From the NCBI GenBank assembly GCA_024640505.1, contig JAHEEV010000008.1:2977-66976 (forward strand): 64,000 bases of DNA, written 5' to 3'. Both the position numbers and the translations under genes were made by a program. Below are positions 9,910 to 62,948 of the stretch, piece by piece (positions within the stretch are counted from its first letter, which is position 1; each line of letters opens with the position of its first letter). Origin of the DNA: Halieaceae bacterium. GTDB taxonomy: Bacteria > Pseudomonadota > Gammaproteobacteria > Pseudomonadales > Halieaceae. The notes under the pieces are model-generated. The model worked only from the letters and a program-made list of their open reading frames with translations, made no database searches and was not told where the DNA came from.

Positions 9910-9989
9910 AGCTTCTACAGGGCGGTGACGCTCCGGCGGCCCGGATCTAACCTGGCATCACGCTGCAGGGAGCGCCGGGAGCACGATCA

Positions 9990-11861: not shown

Positions 11862-12003
11862 GAAACGTTCCTTGCGCGGGTGCGGGCGTGCGCAGCCATG
11901 TTAGCCCAGCCGCCGGGCACAATGAAGGCTGGCCCTGGTTAAATGCCCACCCGGCCCGATGCCAGCACCGTCATCCCGCCTGGCGGTCCGCCTTTGACCG
12001 GGA

Positions 12004-14160
12004 CTACATCCCCCCGGAGATCACTTTCCCCGCATCTGAGTCTGCAGTTTTGGCTCCAGCCACCGATTCACGTGCAGCGGCTTCAGCCGGGGCCTGCTTC
12101 GCCCGCATGCGCAGATAGTGACGCATATCCTCGAGGTCTGAGTCAGCCAAGTGCGGCGAGGGTGGCATACCTTTCGGTTTGAGTGCGCCACCCTTGACCA
12201 CGGCCTTGAAGACATTTTCATCGAGAATCATCGGTGAATAGCGCAGATCAGGGGCGGCACCACCACCTATCGCGTTCATGCCGTGGCAGACCAGGCAGGC
12301 ATTATTGGCGTACGCCATGGCGCCCGCCATGACCCGTTCCGGATCCGGCTTAAAACCCGGATCCTCTGGTGGAATCAGTTCCGGCATATCGAAAGCCGGG
12401 AGGCTGGCAGTGCCATCGATAGAGAATGTCAGCACACGGCGGGGCAGCTGGTAGTCGGTGCGATAGGCTGCGTTGCCTGTCGCCAGGATGCCTCCCCCCT
12501 GCGAGCCATTACCGGTCAGAACAGTGACATACTGTTTGCCCTTCACGCTGTAGGAGATCGGTGGGGCAACGATCGGGGCCGCCGTCTTGAAGGACCAGGT
12601 CTCCCTGCCCGTTTTTGCATCATAGGCCACCAGGTAGCCGTCAATCCGCCCCTGGAAAACCAGATCACCGGCGGTTGCCAGCACGCCACCGGGCCAGGCG
12701 CCGGGCAGTTCGATAGTCCAGGCAGGCTGCTGGGTAAGGGGGTTCCAGGCTTTGAGGAAGCTGCGCCGACTGCCCGGCAGTTCCGCGTCGGGAATCAAGG
12801 TCGCCCCCATACCCGCGCCGATACCGGCGGCGCCGGGACGGGGTGGGCCGATCAGCGCGCCAACTTCCATAATCGGGACGTATACGAGCCCGGTTCGCGG
12901 GCTGAAAGCCTGCGGCAGCCAGCTGTGGGCGCCCTGTGGCCCTGGCCAGAGCTCGAACAACTCCGGTTTGCCCTGGTAGCGAATACCGGGGTTTTCGACC
13001 GGGCGCCCGGTGTCCGGGTCGATCTTTTCCGCCCAGGTCACCCTGGCTATTTTCTCGGCAGAAATAAATTCTCCCGTGGCGGCGTCCACTACATAGAAGA
13101 AGCCATTCTTGGGTGCCTGCAACACGACCTTGCGTGGCTTGCCATCGATTTCCAGGGTCGCGATCGTCATATCCTGCGATGCGGTGCAGTCCCATTGTTC
13201 CGCGGGACAGACCTGGTAGTGCCAGACATACTCGCCCGTATCGGCCTTCACCGCTACGATCGAGGCAAGGAAGAGATTGTCGCCACCGCCGGGGCTGCGC
13301 ATCTGGTGATTATAGGGGAAACCATTGCCTACCCCGAGGTAGACCAGATCCAGTTCCTCGTCGTAGCTGAAGGCATTCCAGGCGGTGCCACCCCCACCTT
13401 TGCCGAACCAGTCACCCTTCCAGGTGGGGCGCATTACCTGCTCTGCCTTGCTGTCTGCAGGCCTGGAGGGATCGCCGGGCACCGTATAAAAGCGCCACAA
13501 CTGCTCGCCTGTCATGGCATCGTAGGCCGTGACATATCCGCGAATGGGGCTGATATCCGCGCCACCGTGGCCGACAATGACTTTGCCGTCAAATACACGA
13601 GGCGCACCGTTACTGTTGCGCAGCTCCGTCAGCTCAAACTGGCGCTGTTCCCATACCGGCTTGCCGGTAGCGTCGTCCAGTGCGATCACGCGACCGTCCG
13701 TGGTAGCAAGAAAGACCCGTCCGTTCCACCAGGCGATGCCCTTGTTGCCCCAGCTCATATGCAGGGAAGATTGCGCAATGTCCCGCACCCCTGGGTCGTA
13801 CTCCCACAATAATTTGCCGCTGGCCGCATCGAACGCGCGAATGTGGTTGTGCCCCGTCGTGGTGAACAGCTTACCGCCGGCCTCGACCGGTGCCGAGACC
13901 GAAAAGCCCGGCTCGAGGTCATAGGACCAGGCCAGGCTCAGCTCGTCCACATTGGCAACAGTAATCTGATCGAGGGGGCTGAAATGCTGCTCACTGCCGT
14001 CGCGCCCGAAATTGGGCCAGTCACCCGCCTCCGTCGCAAACAGATCGCCGGGGTAGAAGCCGAACAGGGCAAATGCTGCGGCCAGTGCAGGCGCGAGTAC
14101 GCCCCCTGGGGAATCGTCCACTCTACCCTTCACTGCGTTTATCATTATGCGTATACCCAT
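12004..14160 (-). CDS. PQQ-dependent quinohaemoprotein alcohol dehydrogenase (methanol/ethanol family with C-terminal cytochrome c domain)
   Basis: N-terminal GDWPNFGRDGSEQHFSPLDQITVANVDELSLAWSY and repeated Trp-docking propeller blades. C-terminal haem-c motif CLVCHG. The ORF track extends to 14397, but the first 79 codons have no signal-peptide character; ATG at 14160 (or 14145) precedes a signal-like AAAFALFGF segment. Confidence 0.9.
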   Translation of the reverse strand: MGIRIMINAVKGRVDDSPGGVLAPALAAAFALFGFYPGDLFATEAGDWPNFGRDGSEQHFSPLDQITVANVDELSLAWSYDLEPGFSVSAPVEAGGKLFTTTGHNHIRAFDAASGKLLWEYDPGVRDIAQSSLHMSWGNKGIAWWNGRVFLATTDGRVIALDDATGKPVWEQRQFELTELRNSNGAPRVFDGKVIVGHGGADISPIRGYVTAYDAMTGEQLWRFYTVPGDPSRPADSKAEQVMRPTWKGDWFGKGGGGTAWNAFSYDEELDLVYLGVGNGFPYNHQMRSPGGGDNLFLASIVAVKADTGEYVWHYQVCPAEQWDCTASQDMTIATLEIDGKPRKVVLQAPKNGFFYVVDAATGEFISAEKIARVTWAEKIDPDTGRPVENPGIRYQGKPELFELWPGPQGAHSWLPQAFSPRTGLVYVPIMEVGALIGPPRPGAAGIGAGMGATLIPDAELPGSRRSFLKAWNPLTQQPAWTIELPGAWPGGVLATAGDLVFQGRIDGYLVAYDAKTGRETWSFKTAAPIVAPPISYSVKGKQYVTVLTGNGSQGGGILATGNAAYRTDYQLPRRVLTFSIDGTASLPAFDMPELIPPEDPGFKPDPERVMAGAMAYANNACLVCHGMNAIGGGAAPDLRYSPMILDENVFKAVVKGGALKPKGMPPSPHLADSDLEDMRHYLRMRAKQAPAEAAARESVAGAKTADSDAGKVISGGM

Positions 14161-50327: not shown

Positions 50328-51488
50328 ATGGAAAGAGAACTACTGATCGAGGAAGTAAAAACCCTGCTGGACCTGGTCGATTGCAACAGCACCACGCTGG
50401 CGGACAGCGTGATGGAGATCGACGCCACCGAGTACATCGATTCGGCGCTTTTCCAGCAGGAAAAGATCGAGCTGTTCCGCAACTATCCGCAGTTCGTCGG
50501 ACCCAGTTGCATGATCCCGGAGCCCGGAGACTACTTTGCCTTCGACGATACGGGCATTCCCATCCTCATCGTACGCAATACAGAAGGCGTGCTGAAGGCG
50601 TTCGTCAACATCTGCTCTCATCGTGGAGCACCCCTCAACGAATGCGATCACGGCAAGGCCAGGAAGGGCCGCATGTTCTCCTGCCCCTACCACGGCTGGA
50701 GTTACGACCTGGACGGCAAGCTTATAGGCGTGCCTTTTGGCAAAGAGGGCTTCGACAGCATCGATCGGTCAGTTCTGGGCCTGAGACCGTTGGACGTTCA
50801 GGAAAAGCACGGCTGTATCTTTGTCATGCCCAACCCGGAGCTGACTTTCGATATCGACCAGGTACTGGGGGGTCTGGAAGAACGCCTGTCGGGCTTCGGT
50901 TTCCAGGATCACTACTACCTGGGCGCCAAGCAGGTTCACACCAACTTCAGCTGGAAGCTGAACATGGACACCTTCCATGAGTATTACCATTTTGAGTTTC
51001 TGCACCCCGATTCTATCGCCCAGATGGCCTACAGTAATATCTCTACCTACCACCAGTATGGGCGCAATCACTCCATGGGCTCGCCGACACTGCAGATCAC
51101 GGACCTGAAGACCGTTCCCGAGGACCAGTGGAACCCGCGGAGTTACAGTTCTTATGTAAATTACATTTTCCCCAACGTGGTGATCTTCGTGGTTGAGGAT
51201 CACTTCCAGACGTGGCGGGTCTATCCCATCAGTCCTGACCGCTCGGTGGTCTACCACAGCATGTTCGTGCCACAGGCGCCAGCGAATGAAGAGGAGCGGC
51301 TGGAACGCGATGCCTACCACCAGATGATCAACGACGTGGCGGTTACCGAAGACTACGGACTGGTCGACAAGATTCACCGCGGACTCAACTGCGGCATCGA
51401 TCGCAAGGTGCTGGTAGGACGCAATGAACCCGGCGTGCAGAATATGCACCGTCAATTACATGAGGTACTGGGGATAGACCAGGTCTAA
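50328..51488 (+). CDS. Rieske [2Fe-2S] oxygenase alpha subunit (shorter, phthalate/KshA-like size class)
   Basis: The start abuts the ACAD stop (TAA then ATG). CSHRGAPL...CPYHGWSY. Mononuclear-iron region HEYYHFEFLHPD. Confidence 0.9.
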   Translation: MERELLIEEVKTLLDLVDCNSTTLADSVMEIDATEYIDSALFQQEKIELFRNYPQFVGPSCMIPEPGDYFAFDDTGIPILIVRNTEGVLKAFVNICSHRGAPLNECDHGKARKGRMFSCPYHGWSYDLDGKLIGVPFGKEGFDSIDRSVLGLRPLDVQEKHGCIFVMPNPELTFDIDQVLGGLEERLSGFGFQDHYYLGAKQVHTNFSWKLNMDTFHEYYHFEFLHPDSIAQMAYSNISTYHQYGRNHSMGSPTLQITDLKTVPEDQWNPRSYSSYVNYIFPNVVIFVVEDHFQTWRVYPISPDRSVVYHSMFVPQAPANEEERLERDAYHQMINDVAVTEDYGLVDKIHRGLNCGIDRKVLVGRNEPGVQNMHRQLHEVLGIDQV

Positions 51489-51655: not shown

Positions 51656-52921
51656 CTAGCGCTGCTCTTCCACCTGATCAGGGCTGACCGCACCCGCGGT
51701 ATTGCCGAAGCTTGCCCGGACATAGGTCGCCACACTGGCAATGTCCTCATCCGAGAGTCTTTTCCCGAACATCTTCATCCGTGTCCGGTCCACGACAAAA
51801 GGTGGTGGCGGCAGGTGCGGCCCGTACAGTATGACGTTGAGCAGTGATGCAGGGTCCGGTGCCTGAACGATGGCACTGCCAGAGAGGGAGACGCCCAGAA
51901 TGTCGTCCCCGAGCCCGGAGGGTAAATGGCAGCTGCCGCAGTGCACGGTGTAGACAATCTCCCCGGCTTTCAATACTTCCGCTGCGGGCGGTGGATCCGC
52001 AGAATGGCTCCGCGGAGGTATATTCTTGAGATAGGTGGCGATAGAAAACGCGTCCTCTTCCGTCAGAAAGCGCGTCGAGTTCATGATCACTTTATTCATG
52101 GGCCCGTGAACCACGGCGTGTTTACACTGGCCCGTTTTCAGGTAAGCGACGATGTCCTCCTCGCTCCACTTTCCAAGGCCGGTGGAGGATGGCGTCAGAT
52201 TTACACCCGACCACCGCCGGTATGCGCCTGTTTTTACCTTGTCAAAATATATCCCGCCGGTCAGGGCCTGGTCGTAAAGCTCCGCACCCAGCAGATTGCG
52301 CGGCGAATGACAGGCACCGCAATGCCCGGGTCCCTCGACAAGATAGGCCCCCCGGTTCCAGGCCCGCGATTTCTCCGGATCCGGCGCATAGGTGGAGGCA
52401 TCATGAAATAGCGCCTTCCATACCGACAGCAGGGGACGTAACCCGTAGGGAAAGCGGAGTGCGTTGGCTCTGGCAGACTCGCGTACCGGTTCGATGGTCT
52501 GCAGGTACAGGAAAAGCGACGCGATATCGTCGTCGGTCAGTTTTGCAAATGCCGTGTAGGGAAAGGCGGGATACAGGTGCGTTCCGTCAGGGCGCACACC
52601 CTCTTTCATCGATCGATAGAATGCCTCGAAGGACCAGTCGCCGATGCCGGTTTCACTGTCCGTCGTTATATTGGTGGAATACAGTGTGCCAAATGGTGTG
52701 CGAAACGCTACGCCACCCGCGAAGGGCGCACCCTTGTCGGTAGTATGGCAGGTCGCGCAATTGCCGACTCTGGCGAGATACTCTCCCCGCTCCACACTGG
52801 CGTCGTACGCTCCTTGCCCCAGGGGTCTGTCGACGCCTGTCCAGGCAGTATGGAAATAAAGCGCGACCAAAACAGCCAATAGCGCCAATACCCAGGCTGT
52901 CGCCCAAAGTTTGAATTTCAT
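51656..52921 (-). CDS. Membrane-anchored tri-haem cytochrome c (dehydrogenase cytochrome-subunit type)
   Basis: N-terminal TM WATAWVLALLAVLVALYF. Three CxxCH motifs (CATCH, CGACH, CGSCH) spaced as in the cytochrome subunits of membrane-bound dehydrogenases. Confidence 0.85.
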   Translation of the reverse strand: MKFKLWATAWVLALLAVLVALYFHTAWTGVDRPLGQGAYDASVERGEYLARVGNCATCHTTDKGAPFAGGVAFRTPFGTLYSTNITTDSETGIGDWSFEAFYRSMKEGVRPDGTHLYPAFPYTAFAKLTDDDIASLFLYLQTIEPVRESARANALRFPYGLRPLLSVWKALFHDASTYAPDPEKSRAWNRGAYLVEGPGHCGACHSPRNLLGAELYDQALTGGIYFDKVKTGAYRRWSGVNLTPSSTGLGKWSEEDIVAYLKTGQCKHAVVHGPMNKVIMNSTRFLTEEDAFSIATYLKNIPPRSHSADPPPAAEVLKAGEIVYTVHCGSCHLPSGLGDDILGVSLSGSAIVQAPDPASLLNVILYGPHLPPPPFVVDRTRMKMFGKRLSDEDIASVATYVRASFGNTAGAVSPDQVEEQR

Positions 52922-52963
52922 GCCGGAAGACTCCGGATGACTCTCGCCATGTCCACCTGCCCG

Positions 52964-53560
52964 CTACCGGGGGACCGTCGCTTCGCGGGGAGCAGAATCT
53001 TCGAAGGGTATCCCGACCAGGCGTAGCCAGTTTTTCGTTCTCGCCAACAGGAAGCGGCAGGGATCCTCATCATCTGACCCCAGCCAGCTGATGATGCTGC
53101 CGGTCAGATGCGCTGTGAATGCTGCGACCGCGGAATCGTGATCAATCGATGTGTCCGGCATGACCCGGGCTATGGCCCTGTTTAAAAGTTCACCGCGTTT
53201 TTTCTCCAGGGCCACGAGAGCCGGATCCCTGACGTTGGCCGCATAGCTGGAGAAGAAGGAGGCCGAGGACTCCCTGCTCCCGACGGTATGACCGATAAAG
53301 GCCGCCACTTCGAGCAAATGGTCACCGGACGGTGTGGTGGGAAGTTGCTCCAGGCTTTGACTGAACGCATCGATCATTCTGGCCAGTATCTCGGTTTTGA
53401 GTGCCTGGGTGCTCTTGAATCGCAGAATGATGGCGGCGCGGGACAGGCCGGTCTCTGCCGCCACTTCAGACAGGGTAAAGGCGTCCACACCACGCAACCT
53501 GATCACCCTGGACGCGGCATCAAAAATCTCTTCGTCGGTAACGGTTGGTGTCCTTGCCAT
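52964..53560 (-). CDS. TetR/AcrR family transcriptional regulator
   Basis: HTH region DEEIFDAASRVIRLRGVDAFTLSEVAAETGLSRAAIILRFKST. Lies 42 bp upstream of the cytochrome c gene on the same strand. Confidence 0.9.
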   Translation of the reverse strand: MARTPTVTDEEIFDAASRVIRLRGVDAFTLSEVAAETGLSRAAIILRFKSTQALKTEILARMIDAFSQSLEQLPTTPSGDHLLEVAAFIGHTVGSRESSASFFSSYAANVRDPALVALEKKRGELLNRAIARVMPDTSIDHDSAVAAFTAHLTGSIISWLGSDDEDPCRFLLARTKNWLRLVGIPFEDSAPREATVPR

Positions 53561-53624
53561 AAACTACCCACTTACAGGCTCGACTGGGCGAACGAAATTG
53601 AAAAAACAACAGACCCATTGACAT

Positions 53625-53669
53625 TACTAACGGCAGTGTCAGAATAATACTAACATAGGCGTTAGTATT
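53625..53669. promoter_or_regulatory. Palindromic operator candidate for the adjacent TetR (AATACTAAC-N6-GTTAGTATT) plus a third TACTAAC half-site
   Basis: Perfect 9-bp arms at 53646-53654 and 53661-53669, with an extra TACTAAC at 53625-53631 just after a TTGACA hexamer (53618-53623). Located in the divergent region between TetR 52964..53560 and the 53711 operon. Confidence 0.5.
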
Positions 53670-53710
53670 TTATGCAACTGCTTTATGCAACGAACTGGGA
53701 TGTGCCGGGC

Positions 53711-54928
53711 ATGACGAGAAAATTCCCATTATTTCGGGCCGCCCGTTGGTCCGCCCTGCTTGCCGCAGGGCAACTGACCGCAGCCCAGGCCGGGCCGGCC
53801 TTTCTACAGGACGGTGAGGCAGGCTTTGTCGTATCCCACATTGAGTACGCGCTCTCCGACGACGCCGAACTGAACGGCGCCTGCCCTTCGGGCATGACAG
53901 GGGGTTTACAGGAAATTTTCGCGGCGTCCCCCGGAGGGAAGCGCGGTCCCGATGAATCGGACGAGCAGTATGTCGCCCGGGTACAAAAAGGCACGCGCAC
54001 ACTCTCGACCACATCTGATGGCCGCGCTCTGTGCATGCACCCGGAGGCCGGTCAGCCCGACCCCTATTTCCGCACGGTTCAACGCAGTGACATCGCGGTT
54101 TTCGGTATCGACCTGGATGGGGAAATATCCAACAGCGACAGCAAAAAGCACGGCACCTGTGCCCATGACGATTTCTCTGGAAGGAACGGCGAGCCCGGCA
54201 TCGACAACCAGTTTTACCGGGTCGTTGGCTGCAGCCGCTCCTTCCAGTCCACCGGTATGTCCAACAGTTTTTCCACAGAAATGCTTACGGGATCCTGGGG
54301 CATTCTCCTGCGGCTACGAGGCGTGGATGACATCGCCAACGACGACGACGTTGAAGTAGGCCTCTATTACAATACCGACCCGATAAAGCTCAGCCCTGGC
54401 CGGGAACCACTGGCCTACGCCAGTTATATCGCCGACAGTGATTCCAGGTTCAGGGGAGAAACGCGGGGGCGTATCAGCAACGGCGTCCTGACCACCGAAC
54501 CGGTGGATGTGCGGTTCCGTCATGTGGTCAACAGTATGGTCCTGGAACGCTTTCTGAGAGATGCGCGCCTCCAGGTGACCCTGTCTGAGCAGGGTGAACT
54601 GGAGGGTTACCTGTCCGGGTATACACCGGTGGAGGCTATGTATGACCAGCAGTTTGGCTACCGCAATGGCAAGACCGGCTCGGGCGAACTCGCTCCACTC
54701 AAATTGAGGTCCGGGTCTGCTACCGGCGCGGCGTTTGTACTTGGGCACACCTGTAATGGTGCCTACTATGCGTTGCTTGAGCACGCGGATGGCCATCCCG
54801 ATCCCGCAACGGGTGAATGCACCTCGATTTCCACGCAGTATCGTATCAGGGCGATACCCGCCTTTGTGCTGGAAGACACGGATTCGCCGGAAAGTCTCAA
54901 CCCGGTTGTGGCGGGTACTGCGCAATGA
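53711..54928 (+). CDS. Exported hypothetical protein (Cys-containing, no recognised domain)
   Basis: ORF 53672..54928. ATG at 53711 gives MTRKFPLFRAARWSALLAAGQLTAAQA (signal peptide, AQA site). Several Cys spread through the mature part. The stop overlaps the next gene's start (ATGA). Confidence 0.6.
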   Translation: MTRKFPLFRAARWSALLAAGQLTAAQAGPAFLQDGEAGFVVSHIEYALSDDAELNGACPSGMTGGLQEIFAASPGGKRGPDESDEQYVARVQKGTRTLSTTSDGRALCMHPEAGQPDPYFRTVQRSDIAVFGIDLDGEISNSDSKKHGTCAHDDFSGRNGEPGIDNQFYRVVGCSRSFQSTGMSNSFSTEMLTGSWGILLRLRGVDDIANDDDVEVGLYYNTDPIKLSPGREPLAYASYIADSDSRFRGETRGRISNGVLTTEPVDVRFRHVVNSMVLERFLRDARLQVTLSEQGELEGYLSGYTPVEAMYDQQFGYRNGKTGSGELAPLKLRSGSATGAAFVLGHTCNGAYYALLEHADGHPDPATGECTSISTQYRIRAIPAFVLEDTDSPESLNPVVAGTAQ

Positions 54929-56652
54929 TCGTCGCTCGCAGTGTCCTGCCTTCATGCATGACCCGGAAAATCCGTCTTTCCGTCTGTTTTTCCATAGCGA
55001 GTATCTGCCTCGCGGGCGCGCTCAATGGCTGTAACTCCGCTGATGAAACTTTGGCCGAGCCCACCCCCGTGGGTGGTCCGCCGCTCATGCGTCGCCTGAC
55101 TGAATCCCAATACCGCGCCACCATCGCTGATATTTTTAGCGCCGAGATACCCATAGCAGCGCGCTTCGAACGCGGCGTCCGAGCGGATGGTCTGCTGGCC
55201 ATCGGCACCAGTGAGGCAGGCATGTCGCCTTTCAGCATAGAGCAGTACGACGCTGCCGCCCGCAGCGTGGCCAGTGCCGTGGTGAGCGAACAGTGGCGGA
55301 AACAGCTTGTTCCATGTCGACCACAGTCGGAGACCGTTTTTGATGAAGGGTGCGCCACAGCATTTGTCGAGCACTATGCTCCGAGACTCATGCGGCGAAC
55401 GCTATCCACGCAGGAGCTCCAACCCTATATCGAACTTGTTCGTCGCGGCCACAGGCAGCTGGATAATTTTTATGAAGGGCTGAAGTTCGCCTTGATCGGA
55501 ATGATGATGTCTCCGGAATTCCTGCTGAGGATTGAGAATACGGAGCCGGATACGGAGATGCCTGGTCTGTATCAGCTGGACGATTTTTCCAGGGCAACGC
55601 GCCTCAGCTATTTCCTCACAAACTCCACCCCGGACAGCGAATTACTCCGGGCTGCGGCAGCCGGTGAACTGAAAACCCGAGAGGGCCTGGCCGGACAGGT
55701 CGACCGATTGATTGCATCGCCGCGTTTTGAAGATGGGGTTCGCGCCTTTTTTACCGATATGCTTGAATTCGAGTTATTTGATGACCTGGCAAAGGATCCG
55801 GTTATCTACCCTGCGTTTAATTCCCAAGTGGCAGCCGAGGCGCAGGAACAGATTCTGCTGACGATCACTGACCAACTGATCGGGCGGAACGCAGACTACC
55901 GTGATCTGTTTATCACCCGCGATACCTATCTCACCAGGGACCTGGGTATTGTTTACCGACTGCCGGTCGCGACACGTAAAGGATGGGAGAAATCGGAATT
56001 CCCGCAGGATACCGGTCGCGCGGGAATTCATACCACTATCGGTTTTCTGGCTCTGCATTCACATCCGGGCAGATCCTCACCTACCCTTCGCGGCAAGGCG
56101 ATCCGGGAAGTCTTCCTGTGCCAGGAAGTGCCCGACCCGCCACCAAATGTCAATTTCAGCGTGGTTCAGGAGCCTACCAGCACCAACATGCCCACCGCCC
56201 GTGACAGGCTCGAGGAGCACAGGACACAGGCTGCCTGCGCTGGCTGCCATAAGATAATGGATCCACTGGGTTTGACGCTCGAAAACTTCGATGGCCTGGG
56301 CGCGTACCGCACGCGGGAAAATGGTGCACCGATAGATTCGAGTGGCTCGCTGGACGGCACTGAATTCAACACTGCTGAAGGCCTTGCGCAGGCACTGCAT
56401 GATCACCCCGAGACACCGCGCTGTCTGGTAGAAAAAATGTACCGGTTTGCCGTCGGACGGGATACCGTCTGGGAAGAGCGTCCGTATATGGACTATCTTG
56501 TAAAGATGTTCGAGGCTGAGAGCTACCGTGTACCTGAACTGATGCGAACGATTGTGCTGAGCAGGAATTTCTTCGCCATATCAGGCGTGCGGCAATATGG
56601 TGGGGAATTCCAGAATGCCGGCCTGAACATCCCGATGGAGGAAACACCGTGA
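54925..56652 (+). CDS. DUF1592/DUF1588-type lipoprotein with a haem-c (CxxCH) motif
   Basis: ATG at 54925 (or 54958). Lipobox-like LAGALNGC. C-terminal EHRTQAACAGCHKIMDPLGLTLENFDGLGAYR is the signature I associate with the DUF1588 part of the DUF1585/1587/1588/1592/1595 family. Confidence 0.75.
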   Translation: MIVARSVLPSCMTRKIRLSVCFSIASICLAGALNGCNSADETLAEPTPVGGPPLMRRLTESQYRATIADIFSAEIPIAARFERGVRADGLLAIGTSEAGMSPFSIEQYDAAARSVASAVVSEQWRKQLVPCRPQSETVFDEGCATAFVEHYAPRLMRRTLSTQELQPYIELVRRGHRQLDNFYEGLKFALIGMMMSPEFLLRIENTEPDTEMPGLYQLDDFSRATRLSYFLTNSTPDSELLRAAAAGELKTREGLAGQVDRLIASPRFEDGVRAFFTDMLEFELFDDLAKDPVIYPAFNSQVAAEAQEQILLTITDQLIGRNADYRDLFITRDTYLTRDLGIVYRLPVATRKGWEKSEFPQDTGRAGIHTTIGFLALHSHPGRSSPTLRGKAIREVFLCQEVPDPPPNVNFSVVQEPTSTNMPTARDRLEEHRTQAACAGCHKIMDPLGLTLENFDGLGAYRTRENGAPIDSSGSLDGTEFNTAEGLAQALHDHPETPRCLVEKMYRFAVGRDTVWEERPYMDYLVKMFEAESYRVPELMRTIVLSRNFFAISGVRQYGGEFQNAGLNIPMEETP

Positions 56653-57977
56653 AAAACCTTTCCCGGCGGACGGTGCTGAGAGGCGCCCTGAAAGGGGCCG
56701 GCGTCGGTGTCGCACTGCCCTTCCTCAATTGTTTCCTCGATGACAGTGGCAAAGCCTTCGCCGGCACGGGGCAGCGGCTACCCATGCGCTTCGGAACATG
56801 GATCTGGGGATGCGGGTTCATTCCCGAGCTGTGGATACCTGCCTCTACGGGAACAGATTATGAATTGCCGGCACATCTTCTGCCTCTGGAACCTTACCGC
56901 GACAGGCTCGCGCTACTGAGCGGCTTTGACGTCAAACTGGATGGCGTGCCGAACAAGCCACACATTACCGGTTGCTTCGGGCTGCGAACAGGCATCCCTG
57001 TTCCCGACAGTAACGTCAAGGCACCGACTATCGATGTACTGGTGAGCGATGCCATTGGGCGCAATACACGGTTTAAATCGCTGGAAATAAGCACCTCGGG
57101 TATCCAACGATCCTACTCCTATCGTAGCGCGGGTTCGCCCAATCCAAGCGAGATCTCCCCTATCGCACTCTATGAGAGAATTTTCGGCGAGGGTTTCCAG
57201 GATCCCGGTGCGGCCTCTTTCAAACCCGACACGCAGGATATGATTCATCACAGCGTCCTGTCTGCTGTGAGTGACGATAGACATCGGCTCATGAACGTCG
57301 TCGGCGCTGAAGATCGCGCTCGACTGGATGAATTTTTTACCTCTATCCGGCAGTTGGAACAGCAGATCGCCCTGCAACTCGAACCGCCGGCCCCGATCGA
57401 AAATTTCGTCAAGCCGGATGCACCGCCGCAGCTTACGCTGGATTCCGAGATGGGAAATGTCATGGAAACTCATCGGATCATGGCGGGGCTGCTGGCGAAG
57501 GCCTTACAGTGCAACCAGACACGGGTATTCAACGTTCTGTTTTCCGATACCACCTCAAACCTGCGCCGCCCTGGCACCACGACCACACATCACACGCTGA
57601 CTCACGAGGAACCGCTGGATCCCGAGCTGGGTCACCAGAGAGAAGTGGCGTGGTTTGCACGGGAGAGTATGGTGGCGTGGCGCGAATTCCTCGACGAACT
57701 TGCCGGCATTCCCGAAGGCGACGGGACCCTGCTCGATAACTGTCTCGTCCTGGCTCATTCCGATTGTTCGATCGCCAAAGCACATGCCGTTGAGGGCATT
57801 CCCACCATGATTGCCGGCGGCGGAGGTCTGTTGCGCACCGGAGTACACCTGGCCGGCAAGGGAGACCCCATCTCACGGGTCGGGCTGACGGTTCAGCAGG
57901 CAATGGGTCTGCAGGTAGAGCGCTGGGGATCGTTATCCATGGAGACCAACCGGACTATCACGGAACTATTATCTTGA
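56649..57977 (+). CDS. DUF1552 (HXXSHH family) protein with twin-arginine signal peptide
   Basis: GTGA overlap with the previous gene, GGAG 8 nt upstream. TAT motif SRRTVLRGALKGAGVGVALPFL. His-rich THHTLTHEE at the position of the family motif. Confidence 0.8.
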   Translation: MKNLSRRTVLRGALKGAGVGVALPFLNCFLDDSGKAFAGTGQRLPMRFGTWIWGCGFIPELWIPASTGTDYELPAHLLPLEPYRDRLALLSGFDVKLDGVPNKPHITGCFGLRTGIPVPDSNVKAPTIDVLVSDAIGRNTRFKSLEISTSGIQRSYSYRSAGSPNPSEISPIALYERIFGEGFQDPGAASFKPDTQDMIHHSVLSAVSDDRHRLMNVVGAEDRARLDEFFTSIRQLEQQIALQLEPPAPIENFVKPDAPPQLTLDSEMGNVMETHRIMAGLLAKALQCNQTRVFNVLFSDTTSNLRRPGTTTTHHTLTHEEPLDPELGHQREVAWFARESMVAWREFLDELAGIPEGDGTLLDNCLVLAHSDCSIAKAHAVEGIPTMIAGGGGLLRTGVHLAGKGDPISRVGLTVQQAMGLQVERWGSLSMETNRTITELLS

Positions 57978-58228: not shown

Positions 58229-60895
58229 ATGTCCCATATCCTCAAGAGATCAATTAAAAAGTACGTGCAACAGCTGGCAGCCGGCTCTGCATCGGTGGCA
58301 TTGATGCCAGGAGCAATACTCGCCCAGACAGTGAACGCTCCCGACGGTAGCGGGAGCCTCGAAGAGATCGTGGTTACGGGTACGCTGATTCGCGGCGTGG
58401 AGGCGGTCGGCTCGCAGACGATCGGCCTCGACCGTGAGGCCATTATCGAAAGCGGGGCAGTAACGACCAACGAGTTGCTCGCCACCGTGCCGCAGGTCTC
58501 TAACTTTTTCAACCAGAGACCGGAACAGGATCCAAGGGGTGCCAACCGGTTACAGGTCAATCGTCCGAATTTGCGGAACCTGCCCGGCATCAACTCGGCC
58601 ACCGGCGCCACGACGCTGATTCTGGTGGATGGTTATCGCATCGCCCCCGTAGGCGTCGACCAGGCATCGCCGGACCCTGATATCGTCCCCGGTTTCGCTA
58701 TCGAGCGGGTAGGGGTGATTACAGACGGCGGCTCGTCTCTGTACGGTGCGGACGCCGTCGGAGGTGTGATTAACTTCATCACAAGAAATGACTTTGATGG
58801 TGTCCAGATCGACCTCGGTTATGATATCGCCGACGATTACGACGGCTGGCAGGCGTCGTTCACCGGGGGCACCAGCTGGGAGAATGGCTCCGGTTATATC
58901 TCGCTGGGCACAACGGATCGCGATCAGATCAATACCGGTGACAGGGACTGGGCCGCCGCTGGCGACTGGAATGAAGAGGGTACCGTCCTGACACCCGATG
59001 GTACGGAGTGTGTGACCCCGGTTGGCGCCGTGACCACGTGGTACTGGTATGGCGCGGGATGGACCGACAACCCGGCCGCGCCGGGCGCGGGCGTTAGACC
59101 GGTGGGTGATCCCTGCGATATCAGGGCGGAAGACGCCCTGCTGCCCGAGCAGACCCGCGACAATTTTTTTGCAGGGTTTACGCAGAACCTCGGTGACATA
59201 TTTACGCTCAAGCTGAAAACCTACTACATGAACCGTACTACCAAATACGGCACCTATCCCATTGGCAGCACCATCGCAGAACCAAATCCTACTGAGCAAG
59301 GCCTGGTGGGTGAAAATAGCGGAGACCTGTTTGACACGGCACAAGTGGGATTTTCCTATGGCGCCCATCCCGACTACCGGAACCGGAGTCTGGAAAACGA
59401 TATCGAGACCTGGGGTATCATCCCCGAGCTGACGGTTGACCTGGGCAGTAGTTGGCAGTGGCGTAATACTTTCTACTATGGTGAATCTGACAACAAAACC
59501 AACGACCCCAATGTAAACCTCGAGAAACAGGGCGCCGCCGTCGCAGCTGGTCTGCTTGATCCACTGGACGTCGCCGCTGCAGACGCCAGTCTGATCGACG
59601 ACATCCTGGATTGGGAGACCGCCAGCAAAACAGAACAGGAGTTGTGGTATATCCGCTCGATCGCCGACGGTGAAGTGATGGACCTGCCCGCCGGTAAGCT
59701 GAGAGCCGCTGTTGGTGTGGAGTATTCTCAGGAAGAGGCGAAGAAGCGCAAAGGCGATGTCGAGCGAGGCAACCTGAACGCGTTGGAGCAAAAAAAGGAT
59801 GACCGCGACGTCACATCTGTCTTTGGCGAGTTGTCGGTGCCCGTGTTCGAGTCACTGGCCCTGTCGTTATCAGTACGCTATGACGACTACAGTGATTTTG
59901 GTGATACGACCAACCCCCAGATCGGCTTCGATTTCATCCCCTTTGATTGGCTGACAATCTATGGCAAATGGGGTGAGTCTTTCAATGCACCGACCGTGCT
60001 CGATAGCATCACGCCAGGGTTTGGTCGATACATTTTCGATGCAGCTGCAGGCGTGCCGGACCCCAATATGGAGAGGACCAACCCCAATCGCGACGACGTG
60101 TTCCTCCTCGAAGGTTCCGGCGGTGCGCTGGCCCCTCAAACGGCTGAAATCTGGGCCGGCGGCTTCGAGATACGGCCACTGGAAGGTCTGTCGCTGAACC
60201 TTCACTACTACGACATCGAATTCAACGAGCTGCTGGCTTCAGTCAACCCGCAGCTTTCCACGGCGGTGCTCCTGAACCCGGACAAGTTCATCTTTGAACC
60301 GACCCAGGCGGAATGGGACGAATTCGTCGCGGCTGTCGACGACCCGGGAGTCGTTCCCGCCACGGTGGGTGCTGACGACGTGGGCGTGATTGTCGACAGA
60401 AGGCTCTCAAATACGGAGGAAGCAGCGCTCAAGGGTATCGACTTTGGCATCCACTATTTTCATGACACCCGTTTCGGCTCGATGTCATACGGGCTCACGG
60501 GCAACTATCAAACGGAGTTTGACCTCAGCCAAAGTGGCGTTGCGGTAGATCAGCTGGACTATAACCCTGATCTATTCCTGTCGGGCAACATTGGCTGGAG
60601 CAGAAACAATATACGAGCCAGCCTGACGCTCCTGTACACTGATGAATACGATGCCGACCCGGGTATCGCGGTCAACCAGACCAAGGTGGATGAATTTCTC
60701 AATACCAGGCTGTTTGTCGGGTATGACTTCGACAGTAACTCGGGTATCACCCAAGGTCTGTCACTGCGTCTGACTGTAGACAACCTTTTCGACGAAGACC
60801 CCCCCGAATATCGGGTGCAGAAGAACCTCAGCTATTCCCCCACCGGCTTTACGCTGGGTCGGATGTTTAAATTCGGTCTTACCAAAAGGTTCTGA
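58229..60895 (+). CDS. TonB-dependent outer-membrane receptor
   Basis: SD AGGAG upstream. Signal peptide ending ILAQT. Plug LEEIVVTGTLIRG ... IERVGVITDGGSSLYGADAVGGVINF. Terminal ...MFKFGLTKRF. Confidence 0.9.
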   Translation: MSHILKRSIKKYVQQLAAGSASVALMPGAILAQTVNAPDGSGSLEEIVVTGTLIRGVEAVGSQTIGLDREAIIESGAVTTNELLATVPQVSNFFNQRPEQDPRGANRLQVNRPNLRNLPGINSATGATTLILVDGYRIAPVGVDQASPDPDIVPGFAIERVGVITDGGSSLYGADAVGGVINFITRNDFDGVQIDLGYDIADDYDGWQASFTGGTSWENGSGYISLGTTDRDQINTGDRDWAAAGDWNEEGTVLTPDGTECVTPVGAVTTWYWYGAGWTDNPAAPGAGVRPVGDPCDIRAEDALLPEQTRDNFFAGFTQNLGDIFTLKLKTYYMNRTTKYGTYPIGSTIAEPNPTEQGLVGENSGDLFDTAQVGFSYGAHPDYRNRSLENDIETWGIIPELTVDLGSSWQWRNTFYYGESDNKTNDPNVNLEKQGAAVAAGLLDPLDVAAADASLIDDILDWETASKTEQELWYIRSIADGEVMDLPAGKLRAAVGVEYSQEEAKKRKGDVERGNLNALEQKKDDRDVTSVFGELSVPVFESLALSLSVRYDDYSDFGDTTNPQIGFDFIPFDWLTIYGKWGESFNAPTVLDSITPGFGRYIFDAAAGVPDPNMERTNPNRDDVFLLEGSGGALAPQTAEIWAGGFEIRPLEGLSLNLHYYDIEFNELLASVNPQLSTAVLLNPDKFIFEPTQAEWDEFVAAVDDPGVVPATVGADDVGVIVDRRLSNTEEAALKGIDFGIHYFHDTRFGSMSYGLTGNYQTEFDLSQSGVAVDQLDYNPDLFLSGNIGWSRNNIRASLTLLYTDEYDADPGIAVNQTKVDEFLNTRLFVGYDFDSNSGITQGLSLRLTVDNLFDEDPPEYRVQKNLSYSPTGFTLGRMFKFGLTKRF

Positions 60896-61019: not shown

Positions 61020-62948
61020 ATGCGACAGCAACGATCCTACGAGAGAAAACATCACTACTTGATGTTACGCAGGCTTGCCGCAGGGATGGCCGCCAACATG
61101 TTGTGCGCTATGCTGATACCTGCCAGCCACGCAGATGACGAGACCAACACTGGCGATGCTGCCTCGAATGATGCCAAAACGGCCCACTACTCCCCCTCCC
61201 TGCGCCAGCCGCCTGAGAAAAACCTTTATTGGGGTGACCTTCACCTGCACACCCGGCTCTCTATGGACGCGTACCTCAACGGGACAAGGAATCTCGGACA
61301 GGAGGCGGCCTATCGCTTTGCCATGGGTGAAGCGGTTGTTGCCGACAATGGCGTAAACGCGAAACTGCGTCGACCGCTGGATTTCCTGGCGGTGACTGAC
61401 CATAGTGAAAACATGGGTCTTTACGTGAGTATTGCCGCAGGGGACCCCAGGGTGATCGGGCAGCCAGTCGGAGATCGCTGGATGGAAGTGCTCGATCTCG
61501 TCGACAGTGTCGGCCTGCGCAATGCGTTCATGACGGTCATGGGAAATTCCGGCCCCATGCCCGACCTGCCTGAGGACCTGCAGCGATCAATCTGGCGCGA
61601 CGTGACGCGGCTTGCCGATAAGTTCTATCAGCCGGGTCGCTTTACCACGCTCATAGGCTACGAGTGGACGTCCATGATTGACGGCAACAATCTTCACCGC
61701 GTGGTGCTGTTTCGCGATAATGCGGAGAAGACAGGCAATGTGTTGCCTATCAGCGCCCAACGGGATCCCGACCCGGAGAGTCTCTGGTCCGGGCTGGCCC
61801 GTTATGAGGAGAGTGGCGGCAAAGTGCTGGCCATTGCTCACAATGGCAATCTCTCCAACGGGAGCATGTTTTCTCCCGACCGAATCAACGGCCAGCCGTT
61901 GGACCCTCAATATGCGAAGACACGGGCGCGCTGGGAGCCGGTCTACGAGGTCACCCAGGTCAAGGGAGATGCTGAAACGCATCCTTACCTCTCTCCGACC
62001 GATGAATTTGCAGATTTCGAGACCTGGGACAAGACCAATGTCGCCAATACAGCGCCCAAGGAAACCGGGATGCTGCGCTACGAGTATGCGCGCGCGGCCC
62101 TCGCGGAAGGGCTGAGGCACGAACAGTCCCTGGAAGCCAACCCCTTCAAGTTCGGCATGATCGGCAGCAGCGACAGTCACACCAGCCTGTCCACTACTAC
62201 CGAAGACAACTTCTTCGGAAAGTTCAGGGGCTCTGAACCCTCGCCGGAGCGCTATCTTGCAACAATGAGCGGCCAGGTCGAGCGCAACTGGGAATTGGGG
62301 GCGTCAGGTCTTGCCGCCGTCTGGGCACTGGAAAACACGCGGGAGGCGATTTTTGATGCGATCCTTCGCCGTGAAGTCTATGCCACCAGCGGCAGCCGCA
62401 TTCGCCTGCGCTTTTTCGGCGGCTGGAATTTTCACGAAGAGGACATCGATCGGGCGGACTACGCCCGCTTTGGCTATCGTCATGGGGTACCCATGGGCAG
62501 TGACCTTCCGCCGCGTGATCAGGGCAGGTCGCCCACTTTCCTGATTCATGCAGCGCGCGATATTGACTCCGCCTTCCTCGACCGGGTACAGGTGGTTAAG
62601 GGCTGGTTGAACGAAAACGGCGGTACTCAGGAAAAGGTTTACGATGTCGCCCTGTCCGACGGCCGAGCGACAGGAGTCAATAATGAGCTGGATCCCGTCG
62701 GCTCTACCGTTGACCTCAGGGAGGCCAGCTACAGTAATTCGATTGGGGATCCGGAATTGGCAAGCTGGTGGCGCGACCCCGACTTCGACCCATCGCAGCC
62801 GGCATTCTACTATGTACGCGTACTGGAAATTCCTACCCCGCGCTGGACCACCCATGACGCTGCTTTTTTCGGCACTGAGTTGCCGCCGGAAATACCTCGC
62901 TCGGTACAGGATCGCGCCTATAGTTCACCGATCTGGTACAGCCCCTGA
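61020..62948 (+). CDS. DUF3604 family protein (PHP-like metal-dependent hydrolase fold), exported
   Basis: YWGDLHLHTRLSMDAY near the N-terminus is the DUF3604/PHP-type HxH signature. A signal-like MLRRLAAGMAANMLCAMLIPASHA suggests the real start may be the ATG at 61062. Confidence 0.8.
   Translation: MRQQRSYERKHHYLMLRRLAAGMAANMLCAMLIPASHADDETNTGDAASNDAKTAHYSPSLRQPPEKNLYWGDLHLHTRLSMDAYLNGTRNLGQEAAYRFAMGEAVVADNGVNAKLRRPLDFLAVTDHSENMGLYVSIAAGDPRVIGQPVGDRWMEVLDLVDSVGLRNAFMTVMGNSGPMPDLPEDLQRSIWRDVTRLADKFYQPGRFTTLIGYEWTSMIDGNNLHRVVLFRDNAEKTGNVLPISAQRDPDPESLWSGLARYEESGGKVLAIAHNGNLSNGSMFSPDRINGQPLDPQYAKTRARWEPVYEVTQVKGDAETHPYLSPTDEFADFETWDKTNVANTAPKETGMLRYEYARAALAEGLRHEQSLEANPFKFGMIGSSDSHTSLSTTTEDNFFGKFRGSEPSPERYLATMSGQVERNWELGASGLAAVWALENTREAIFDAILRREVYATSGSRIRLRFFGGWNFHEEDIDRADYARFGYRHGVPMGSDLPPRDQGRSPTFLIHAARDIDSAFLDRVQVVKGWLNENGGTQEKVYDVALSDGRATGVNNELDPVGSTVDLREASYSNSIGDPELASWWRDPDFDPSQPAFYYVRVLEIPTPRWTTHDAAFFGTELPPEIPRSVQDRAYSSPIWYSP

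Follow-up and report, generated by a model that had tools for sequence, protein, structure and literature searches.

A conserved TetR-linked gene module around a PSCyt3-DUF1552 pair, with a dedicated tri-haem cytochrome c, in a Halieaceae bacterium: a candidate periplasmic redox system

Planctomycetota and Verrucomicrobiota possess gene pairs in which a five-domain haem protein of the PSCyt3/PSD type (DUF1587-DUF1595-DUF1592-DUF1588-DUF1585) is followed by a translationally coupled, Tat-exported DUF1552 protein. A paper of 2017 (PMC5615132) describes the PSCyt3/DUF1552 pair as having no known function, in line with the earlier note on this DNA, which had called DUF1588/DUF1552 pairs functionally unassigned. 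The literature found on the pair makes no mention of a TetR switch, a tri-haem cytochrome or a 405-aa partner protein.

A pair of the same kind is present in the window (the whole 64,000-nucleotide stretch analysed, from contig JAHEEV010000008.1 of a marine Halieaceae bacterium). It belongs to a three-gene plus-strand operon, unk-PSCyt3-DUF1552, from which genes for a TetR regulator and a tri-haem cytochrome c are divergent. The features of the locus are as follows:

51656-52921, minus strand, tri-haem cytochrome c gene (421 aa)
52964-53560, minus strand, TetR gene (198 aa; PF00440, 6.4e-10)
53618-53645, plus strand, sigma-70-type promoter of the plus-strand operon (TTGACA, 16 nt, (TG)CAGAAT)
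53626-53643, unstranded, predicted operator O1, an imperfect copy of the palindrome (ACTAAC-N6-GTCAGA)
53646-53669, unstranded, predicted operator O2, directly after the -10 hexamer (AATACTAAC-N6-GTTAGTATT)
53711-54928, plus strand, unk gene for an unannotated exported protein (405 aa)
54925-56652, plus strand, PSD3-PSD5-PSD4-PSCyt3-PSD2 gene (DUF1587/1595/1592/1588/1585; 575 aa)
56649-57977, plus strand, DUF1552/HXXSHH gene (442 aa; PF07586, 1.7e-50)
58229-60895, plus strand, TonB-dependent receptor gene (plug and barrel domains; own upstream region)

Read directly in the window, all five open reading frames of the earlier note are real as it described them, as are the overlaps ATGA (54925-54928) and GTGA (56649-56652), the four CxxCH sites (three in the cytochrome, one in the PSCyt3 protein) and the twin-arginine leader SRRTVLRG of the DUF1552 protein; the Pfam scores far exceed the cut-offs. 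The gap between the TetR gene and the cytochrome start is 42 bp. Alternative starts exist for two genes, namely an upstream ATG at 53672 for unk (418 aa) and a second in-frame ATG at 54958 for the PSCyt3 protein, with which the lipoprotein leader is more canonical (MTRKIR...LAGALNGC), so that the coupling of these two genes may be a 30-nt gap and not an overlap. TonB receptors also occur near the module in loci L004, L013, L020, L032, and L033; the receptor is a loose, recurrent neighbour outside the core, through which the substrate could possibly enter. Oxygenases are abundant in the surrounding window.

Linkage of the module genes is conserved in Haliea, Pseudomaricurvus, Povalibacter and other genomes. 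The divergent arrangement of cytochrome-TetR and unk-PSCyt3-DUF1552 is found in loci L001-L004, L012, L013, and L031, and in L015 and L021 all four genes run in the same direction as a single operon, cytochrome-unk-PSCyt3-DUF1552, with a two-component system after it. Co-occurrence was assessed in 81 genomes of the window's family (the relatives being Haliea), 23 of them DUF1552-positive and 58 DUF1552-negative, with a threshold of E<=1e-120 for a close cytochrome homologue. It proved strong for both partners: a close cytochrome is present in 13 of the 23 positive genomes and unk in 21, and both are absent from all 58 negative genomes (Fisher p=3e-9 for the cytochrome). All 14 close cytochrome genes of other genomes lie no more than 4.4 kb from the DUF1552 gene and on the same strand, while unk adjoins 24 of 29 DUF1552 copies in the family genomes. 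In this lineage the unk protein is thus a core partner to DUF1552, not an occasional accessory, and phyletic pattern and adjacency mark the tri-haem cytochrome as dedicated to the DUF1552 module. It is no obligatory partner of DUF1552, since about half of the family's DUF1552 copies have none nearby.

The cytochrome, encoded by a single-copy gene, has an N-terminal hydrophobic anchor and the haem motifs CATCH, CGACH and CGSCH, all kept in 10 homologues; in every complete homologue examined, the four haem-motif positions of the cytochrome and the PSCyt3 protein are kept. It aligns over its whole length with solved quinone-reducing subunits (PDB sequence matches 8gy2_B, 2.9e-81 over residues 35-419; 8hdd_B, 7w2j_C, and 8gy3_A) and is, on sequence comparison, a homologue of these subunits of membrane-bound alcohol, glucose, fructose and aldehyde dehydrogenases. 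As the earlier note had observed, no dehydrogenase partner adjoins it: the open reading frames and Pfam matches of the locus include neither a catalytic subunit of the PQQ, FAD/GMC or molybdopterin type nor a Gluconate_2-dh3 small subunit.

The PSCyt3 protein has Pfam matches of 38-100 bits, all above cut-offs, as well as a weak DUF1800 match in its C-terminal PSD2 region (residues 482-552; 28.6 bits, cut-off 26.1). C438, C441, and H442 of its haem motif CAGCH are invariant in 13 sequences. The alignment consensus carries a GCS lipobox, for which the window protein has LNGC, and this mono-haem protein is probably a lipoprotein. The unk protein is exported and has six conserved cysteines. It matches no Pfam or NCBIfam model, in keeping with the lack of a recognisable domain remarked on before. 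A search with it gave 808 cluster representatives at E<=0.001, and one unk relative is fused to an alpha/beta hydrolase. AlphaFold2 gives it a confident, beta-rich predicted fold (pLDDT 91.5) with no fold match in the PDB (best E 0.07, TM<0.2); as modelled, the fold looks new. Some loci of Alphaproteobacteria (L006, L007, L011) have unk on its own.

DUF1552 is also a single-copy gene in this genome. In an alignment of 51 sequences its twin arginine (R6, R7) is invariant, as are H105, H315, H319, H379, and D129. The AlphaFold2 model is of only moderate confidence (pLDDT 76.8), and its best Foldseek matches in the PDB are almost all members of the alkaline-phosphatase superfamily (top match 8eg3, E 4e-5, prob 1.0, with a modest TM of 0.34-0.42). 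The protein thus models as an alkaline-phosphatase/sulfatase-like fold, which is not one of the folds known to carry redox cofactors, and the order of secondary-structure elements alone would place its histidines at the classical metal site. This superfamily consists of metallo-hydrolases and transferases, and we know of no member that carries out redox chemistry with a cytochrome partner. The analysis found no known redox-cofactor site and could identify no metal or cofactor. The earlier suggestion of a probably cofactor-loaded periplasmic redox catalyst is therefore not supported in that form for DUF1552, a twin-arginine leader alone being no proof of a cofactor.

The promoter of the operon matches the consensus at 10 of 12 positions, and both hexamers are conserved across the alignable loci. 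The palindrome with 9-bp arms that had been reported earlier is present as O2, and O1 sits in the promoter spacer and overlaps the -10 hexamer; a second site equivalent to O1 was also found in loci L003 and L012. A search of the 4.17-Mb genome for the 12-base core of the palindrome, ACTAAC-N6-GTTAGT, finds this one site, also when one mismatch is allowed (expected 0.07). The TetR gene is kept at the same position in loci L001-L004, L012-L014, and L031, all of which have CTAAC-N6-GTTAG (<=1 mismatch) in the TetR-operon intergenic region; loci that have no TetR gene there lack the motif. From these sequences, the conserved promoter appears to carry two conserved TetR operators, the palindrome being one of them, through which TetR would repress the operon.

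Other variants of the module carry other electron carriers. Beside the PSCyt3-DUF1552 pair there is a HiPIP with a tri-haem cytochrome in locus L019, an FCSD flavoprotein with extra cytochrome c domains in L016, and cytochrome c', sometimes accompanied by cytochrome b561, in L027-L029 of an ankyrin-type sister subfamily. The same pair has recruited different electron carriers independently, which makes a periplasmic redox system the most economical reading. About half of our confidence goes to the locus being a substrate-inducible system of this kind, built on the PSCyt3/PSD-DUF1552 pair and wired to the quinone pool. The periplasmic oxidoreductase proposed in the earlier note is thus partly supported, as to the conserved unit, the dedicated cytochrome and the varied electron carriers, but not as to a catalytic redox cofactor in DUF1552.

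In such a system, DUF1552 would cross the membrane folded via Tat, with a metal centre bound by histidines on a scaffold of the alkaline-phosphatase type, and would pair with the Sec-exported mono-haem PSCyt3 lipoprotein and the disulfide-rich 405-aa protein, the latter perhaps a dedicated third subunit, a substrate binder or an assembly factor. Electrons from a periplasmic substrate would reach the PSCyt3 haem by way of the DUF1552 centre, and would travel on through the membrane-associated tri-haem cytochrome c to ubiquinone, as in membrane-bound alcohol, glucose and fructose dehydrogenases. TetR would bind the two CTAAC-N6-GTTAG operators over the spacer, -10 hexamer and start region of the operon promoter, and leave them when inducer is present. 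Through the module, a gene pair that has long lacked an explanation gains a link to the respiratory chain that can be tested.

The same complex could also run in reverse, with the quinol pool or other periplasmic donors feeding the tri-haem cytochrome, the PSCyt3 haem and then DUF1552, which would reduce an oxidant (peroxide, oxyanion or oxidised organic compound) or activate oxygen, as a reductase, peroxidase or oxygenase and not a dehydrogenase. The genomic evidence on electron carriers is silent on direction, the surrounding window is rich in oxygenases, and the sister subfamily has cytochrome c' and cytochrome b561, proteins often associated with the handling of oxidants or NO. However, the solved relatives of the tri-haem subunit all belong, by their PDB molecule names, to dehydrogenases, enzymes that reduce quinone, and HiPIP and FCSD partners are typical of substrate-oxidising chains, so that reverse flow appears unlikely.

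It is rather improbable that DUF1552 is an ordinary sulfatase- or phosphatase-like metallo-hydrolase or transferase acting on an imported ester, with PSCyt3 as its non-catalytic partner, the haem of which has a structural or sensing role, and with the cytochrome oxidising the released product separately. The modelled fold would suit this, as would a profile comparison in which the region of the sulfatase DNT...SD motif matches weakly and locally (P=0.0036), the sulfatase gene directly upstream of the pair in L033, the carboxylesterases adjoining it in L032 and L033, and the hydrolase fusion of one unk relative. Against it, the expected position of the Ser, Thr or formylglycine nucleophile appears, from motif order, to be an invariant His; the haem motif is invariant family-wide, including in members only 24-27 % identical; and four kinds of electron carriers recur at the locus.

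That the tri-haem cytochrome lies here by chance, as a shared or orphan subunit of an unlinked dehydrogenase, is very hard to credit: the same genome does have one Gluconate_2-dh3 small subunit and, after it, a GMC-type flavoprotein, with no adjoining cytochrome gene (C176:56583-59204), and in genome G347 a small-subunit gene directly adjoins the cytochrome-unk-PSCyt3-DUF1552 operon, but across the 81 family genomes the distribution of the cytochrome does not follow that of the FAD-dehydrogenase small subunits (45 carry a small subunit without a close tri-haem cytochrome, and 7 of 13 cytochrome-bearing genomes lack one), it is limited to DUF1552-bearing genomes, always beside DUF1552 and several times within the same operon, and it diverges in parallel with DUF1552 (63-69 % for the cytochrome and 73-82 % for DUF1552 in one clade, 50-53 % and 43-44 % in the other).

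Unlike the Planctomycetota and Verrucomicrobiota pairs, that of the window is single-copy and gammaproteobacterial, and has in addition a TetR switch, a dedicated tri-haem cytochrome c of the alcohol dehydrogenase type and a dedicated 405-aa protein; the last His of the HXXSHH motif is Glu in the window's subfamily (HTLTHE). The gammaproteobacterial PSCyt3-DUF1552-ankyrin triads (L027-L029) likewise have the pair in a single operon together with an additional cytochrome and a third protein that is exported, and their DUF1552 proteins, 27-31 % identical to that of the window, share the invariant His/Asp set. However, their third partner is an ankyrin-repeat protein in place of the beta-rich unk, and their cytochrome is a class II cytochrome c' in place of the tri-haem quinone-type protein.

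The weak DUF1800 match in the PSD2 region recalls the DUF1800 and DUF1501 pairs. As DUF1501 is a Tat-exported protein of the alkaline-phosphatase clan, the two kinds of pair look like parallel versions of one design, although to our knowledge DUF1800 proteins are without the PSCyt3 haem motif; no DUF1501 above cut-off was found in the window's own genome. With sulfatases and the alkaline-phosphatase superfamily, DUF1552 shares a predicted core fold and the weak profile similarity, which is local to the DNT...SD strand-loop region, with no sequence-level match to any solved member. It differs from sulfatases in lacking the Cys/Ser-x-Pro-x-Arg motif, in having histidines apparently at the expected nucleophile and Asp/His metal-ligand positions, and in a modelled long two-helix insertion (residues 195-244).

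Like the three-subunit membrane-bound dehydrogenases (PQQ alcohol; FAD glucose, fructose and gluconate; aldehyde), the locus encodes a cytochrome subunit homologous over the whole length and with three haem sites, and the proposed logic is the same, leading from a periplasmic catalytic subunit through a tri-haem cytochrome to ubiquinone. At this locus, in contrast, proteins without an assigned function stand where those enzymes have their catalytic subunit.

All five open reading frames that an earlier note had proposed for this module were found at the positions it had assigned to them (window coordinates):

51656-52921, minus strand: tri-haem cytochrome, with cytochrome c domains in Pfam
52964-53560, minus strand: TetR regulator (PF00440, helix-turn-helix domain TetR_N)
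53711-54928, plus strand: exported 405-aa protein of an unannotated family, here called Unk
54925-56652, plus strand: mono-haem PSD3-PSD5-PSD4-PSCyt3-PSD2 protein, a probable lipoprotein, here called the PSCyt3 protein
56649-57977, plus strand: DUF1552 protein (PF07586, DUF1552/HXXSHH)

The ATGA and GTGA overlaps joining the three plus-strand genes (the latter at 56649-56652), the 42-bp gap between the TetR and cytochrome genes and the palindrome with 9-bp arms had likewise been claimed, and each could be read directly from the sequence. The first of the overlaps is not certain, because the PSCyt3 protein gene has a second ATG at 54958, from which the lipoprotein leader would look more typical. 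In the database, Unk is called from the ATG at 53672 (418 aa); the start at 53711 was kept, since 53672 is only some 20 nt past the predicted transcription start and immediately follows the predicted operator. The genes for the cytochrome, Unk, the PSCyt3 protein and the DUF1552 protein are each single-copy in the 4.17-Mb genome, which is 91 % complete.

The co-occurrence check proposed in the earlier note was run on 81 genomes of the window's family, representing 40 genera, and both the cytochrome and Unk proved to be confined to the DUF1552-positive genomes.

Occurrence of the cytochrome and Unk in the 23 DUF1552-positive and 58 DUF1552-negative genomes of the family
Close tri-haem cytochrome (E<=1e-120): 13/23 DUF1552-positive, 0/58 DUF1552-negative
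Unk: 21/23 DUF1552-positive, 0/58 DUF1552-negative

For cytochrome versus DUF1552 presence the Fisher test gives p=3e-9, a value which overstates independence because members of a single family have a common ancestry. Against this, the module is found across 14 genera and in at least three gene orders. DUF1552 itself occurs in genomes from 14 of the 40 genera, is absent from the three other genomes of the window's own genus and is rare in the class (4/301 genomes); the module is therefore an accessory, patchily distributed one. Unk is very rare elsewhere, being present in 1 of 300 genomes across the class, namely the window's own. The 22 other DUF1552-positive family genomes carry 29 DUF1552 copies; Unk lies no more than 2.2 kb from 24 of them and the cytochrome no more than 4.4 kb from 14, in every case on the same strand, and all 14 close cytochrome homologues in these genomes lie beside a DUF1552 gene.

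Scanning species-representative genomes for Unk yielded eleven loci. Four of them (two Haliea MAGs and two other proteobacterial MAGs) keep the whole arrangement, with the cytochrome and TetR genes divergent from Unk-PSCyt3-DUF1552, and three more (Steroidobacter and Novosphingobium MAGs) keep the three-gene operon. The five-gene arrangement was met again, through look-ups of DUF1552 homologues, in Pseudomaricurvus sp. HS19, a Povalibacter contig and a 4-Mb contig. CP019046.1 and one family genome have a single co-directional cytochrome-Unk-PSCyt3-DUF1552 operon, followed by a two-component system. Close DUF1552 homologues are present in two cultured strains, Pseudomaricurvus sp. HS19 and Haliea sp. 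E17.

The cytochrome aligns over its full length with solved subunits, including 8gy2_B (E-value 2.9e-81, residues 35-419 of 421), 8hdd_B (5.6e-73), 7w2j_C and 8gy3_A. These matches, which range from 2.9e-81 to 2.2e-62, are the cytochrome subunits of quinone-reducing alcohol, glucose, fructose and aldehyde dehydrogenases. Its three haem motifs (CATCH at 55, CGACH at 201 and CGSCH at 328) are all kept in 10 homologues. As the earlier note had remarked, no dehydrogenase accompanies it, a PQQ, FAD or molybdopterin catalytic subunit being absent both here and at related loci of the same type. The one exception is in Povalibacter contigs (L013:10509-12449), where a 646-aa PQQ-repeat dehydrogenase lies on the same strand 177 bp downstream of DUF1552; no other locus has a classical dehydrogenase in the neighbourhood of the tri-haem cytochrome. 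A gene for a Rieske ring-hydroxylating oxygenase alpha subunit is convergent to the cytochrome gene in the window (50328-51488) and at a related locus (L031:2514-3923), and another lies a few genes from the cytochrome at L015:13888-15297; these alpha subunits are unequal in length (386 versus 469 aa).

The PSCyt3 protein possesses, in order, the domains PSD3 (38.4 bits), PSD5 (53.4), PSD4 (99.5), PSCyt3 (100.5) and PSD2 (53.2), all above their cut-offs. Its haem motif, CAGCH at 438, lies in the PSCyt3 domain, and 13 sequences, as little as 24 % identical, all share C438, C441 and H442. For this protein, comparison with PDB sequences, as single sequence and as profile, returned matches at chance level only. 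Its gene adjoins the DUF1552 gene in the same order at all loci examined, and the genes that surround the pair vary. One family genome has the order PSCyt3, DUF1552, a Lipoprotein_15-repeat protein, Unk, a 292-aa protein, a HiPIP and the tri-haem cytochrome. Variants with Lipoprotein_15 repeats (PF03640), the 292-aa protein, which has a weak HpcH/HpaI aldolase match, and a Tat-signal HiPIP were seen at L019:6746-8242, 9442-10320 and 10331-10678 and at L018:8043-9803, the inserts sitting between DUF1552 and the tri-haem cytochrome. In a distant gammaproteobacterium (L016, all minus strand) the PSD/PSCyt3 core is part of a 1356-aa protein (9547-13617) that also has three CBM2 cellulose-binding modules, an Fn3 domain and extra cytochrome c domains with three further CxxCH motifs; DUF1552 (8270-9541) follows, and then a Tat-signal FCSD-type flavoprotein (6959-8257). 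A sister DUF1552 subfamily (Thalassolituus, Halioxenophilus and others) has PSCyt3, DUF1552, an ankyrin-repeat protein and a cytochrome c', with cytochrome b561 in addition in one case.

At other loci, which lack the cytochrome, the pair is adjoined by TonB-dependent receptors, a carboxylesterase, an SDR or a sulfatase. On a 2.7-Mb contig (L033:4778-7174) a 798-aa sulfatase lies directly upstream of PSCyt3-DUF1552 in the usual place of Unk, with neither Unk nor the tri-haem cytochrome nearby. The TonB receptor was rejected as a fixed member of the module, as its place differs between loci and several loci have none. Its recurrence suggests that the substrate may be an imported compound, the neighbourhoods being otherwise too varied to name one. 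Downstream of the window's TonB receptor lies a DUF3604 protein (61020-62948) with at least 12 paralogues in the genome (33-52 % identity; contigs C241, C125, C76, C36, C129, C162 and others); this uncharacterised family of exported proteins is greatly expanded here.

The best explanation of the module would be a redox enzyme of the periplasm with a connection to the respiratory chain, and we put the chances of this at about even. It rests on the repeated recruitment of four kinds of electron carrier, on a haem motif without variation and on the restriction of the cytochrome to the module. Interaction with quinones is known for two of the four kinds, cytochrome b561 and the tri-haem cytochrome. 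By analogy, an oxidative direction of electron flow is favoured, because every solved relative of the cytochrome works with a dehydrogenase; the same fact speaks against the rival in which the same complex would work in the reductive direction.

The DUF1552 protein matches PF07586 with 172.8 bits against a cut-off of 30. Its orthologues are unusually conserved, the best 120 clusters all being at least 72 % identical. The twin-arginine leader that had been recognised in it (SRRTVLRG) is present, with a hydrophobic stretch behind it and with R6, R7 and L10 invariant, and predicts Tat export. In an alignment of 51 sequences, comprising two subfamilies only 27-31 % identical, the invariant residues include, besides the Tat arginines R6 and R7, H105, D129, H315, H319 and H379, while C109, H314 and H400 are nearly invariant. 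The HXXSHH region reads H315-T-L-T-H319-E in the window, its first two histidines being invariant and the last replaced by glutamate in this subfamily. The structure model is moderate (pLDDT 76.8), with low confidence for residues 1-35 as expected for a leader, and nearly all of its best Foldseek matches in the PDB belong to the alkaline-phosphatase superfamily. These include steroid sulfatase (4e-5), LtaP, LtaS-type enzymes, carrageenan and heparan sulfatases and alkaline phosphatase; five have E-values of 0.001 or below, with probabilities up to 1.0 and TM-scores of only 0.34-0.42. Alignment by hhalign with ten sulfatases of the same genome gave only a weak, short local match in the 'TLLDNxLVxxxSD' region (P=0.0036, probability 9 %) and nothing in global or alternative alignments, and single-sequence and profile comparison with PDB sequences gave chance-level matches only. 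A rival explanation is that of a plain hydrolase with a non-redox haem partner. The superfamily to which the model points includes sulfatases, and the C/S-x-P-x-R motif was looked for in the DUF1552 protein and is absent. Going by the order of strands and helices in the model, without superposition, H105 would precede a conserved xxxTG helix start where sulfatases carry the nucleophile, and H315-x3-H319 and H379 would follow the strands that bear metal ligands in the superfamily.

No Pfam domain was found in Unk or in any of the 65 family members searched, and NCBIfam has no match for Unk, the PSCyt3 protein or the DUF1552 protein. The Unk family comprises 808 cluster representatives at E<=0.001, its members all named 'hypothetical', and is marked by the acidic motifs DLDG, GIDNQ and GVDD..ND and by six conserved cysteines, of which four never vary and two are kept at 90 % or above. 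The AlphaFold2 model is confident (pLDDT 91.5, pTM 0.88); its N-terminal part is helical and its C-terminal part rich in beta structure. Foldseek found no relative for it in the PDB (best E-value 0.07, TM below 0.2), and single-sequence and profile comparison with PDB sequences gave matches at chance level only; weak beta-barrel matches (TbpB, YceI, avidin, PsbO) were set aside at E-values of 0.07 or above and TM below 0.2. Among ten long relatives, five are fused to Lipoprotein_15 repeats and one to an alpha/beta hydrolase. The fusions to Lipoprotein_15 (PF03640) occur in other organisms (relatives P0078, P0087, P0108, P0131 and P0132), and no solved relative of the Lipoprotein_15 protein was found. 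One alphaproteobacterial MAG has four Unk paralogues without adjoining PSCyt3 or DUF1552 (L006, L007, L011), two of which flank a TonB-dependent receptor at L011.

A bolder version of the redox-enzyme reading, to which we lend distinctly less than even credence, is that DUF1552 may have an alkaline-phosphatase fold in which a His-ligated redox metal centre has taken the place of the hydrolytic nucleophile and acidic ligands; it would then be one component, alongside the dedicated tri-haem cytochrome, the new-fold Unk and the PSCyt3 haem lipoprotein, of a class of periplasmic quinone-linked dehydrogenase not recognised before.

It is unlikely that the cytochrome instead serves an unlinked dehydrogenase. 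In favour of this, a Gluconate_2-dh3 small subunit (PF13618, which belongs to the three-subunit FAD dehydrogenases) and, behind it, a GMC-type flavoprotein are encoded on a separate contig of the genome (C176:56583-59204), and no cytochrome gene is found in their vicinity; against it, the phyletic pattern ties the cytochrome to DUF1552 and not to the small subunit or the GMC enzyme. PF13618 is present in 51 of the 81 family genomes; 45 of these 51 lack this cytochrome, and most of the 51 have no ADH-type tri-haem cytochrome at all; 7 of the 13 cytochrome-bearing family genomes lack PF13618, and over the 81 genomes the pattern of the cytochrome is independent of it. On these data the cytochrome was rejected as an FAD-dehydrogenase partner. 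In one family genome (G347:C1:114142-116230) a Gluconate_2-dh3 small-subunit gene is divergent from the cytochrome-Unk-PSCyt3-DUF1552 operon at about 430 bp; in two genomes of the same genus it is far off or on a different contig.

A sigma-70-type promoter at 53618-53645 faces the operon (TTGACA, 16 nt, CAGAAT with an upstream TG) and is conserved in related loci. The palindrome (53646-53669) begins directly after the -10 hexamer, and an imperfect second copy, ACTAAC-N6-GTCAGA at 53626-53643, occupies the spacer and reaches into the -10. The motif CTAAC-N6-GTTAG lies between the TetR gene and Unk at every locus with an orthologous TetR and was not found at loci without a TetR gene there, nor at L032, where a TetR gene is in place. 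Such a pattern would be expected of a dedicated local repressor occluding its target promoter, with both copies as candidate operators. Control of other genes from this operator was rejected, the core ACTAAC-N6-GTTAGT having one occurrence in the genome with one mismatch allowed.

Literature on DUF1552, DUF1588, DUF1501, DUF1800, PSCyt and PF03640 was searched and no functional study was found. PSCyt3/PSD-DUF1552 pairs are reported to be frequent in some Verrucomicrobia genomes, and their function is given there as unknown (PMC5615132). The parts list gains from the window an unannotated protein family with a confident predicted fold and no solved relative, and the observation of a sulfatase-type fold repeatedly partnered with electron carriers. 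The window's pair belongs to the known, uncharacterised kind found in Planctomycetota and Verrucomicrobiota; its new features are a tri-haem cytochrome of the quinone type and an unannotated protein without a solved fold relative, both dedicated, and the defined TetR switch. This version makes the function of the pair experimentally approachable, being single-copy, under a dedicated TetR switch with a defined predicted operator, present in cultured strains and linked to a cytochrome whose relatives pass electrons to ubiquinone. Should the dehydrogenase reading be true, the PSCyt3-DUF1552 pairs of Planctomycetota and Verrucomicrobiota would gain their first physiological role, the respiratory oxidation of an imported substrate.
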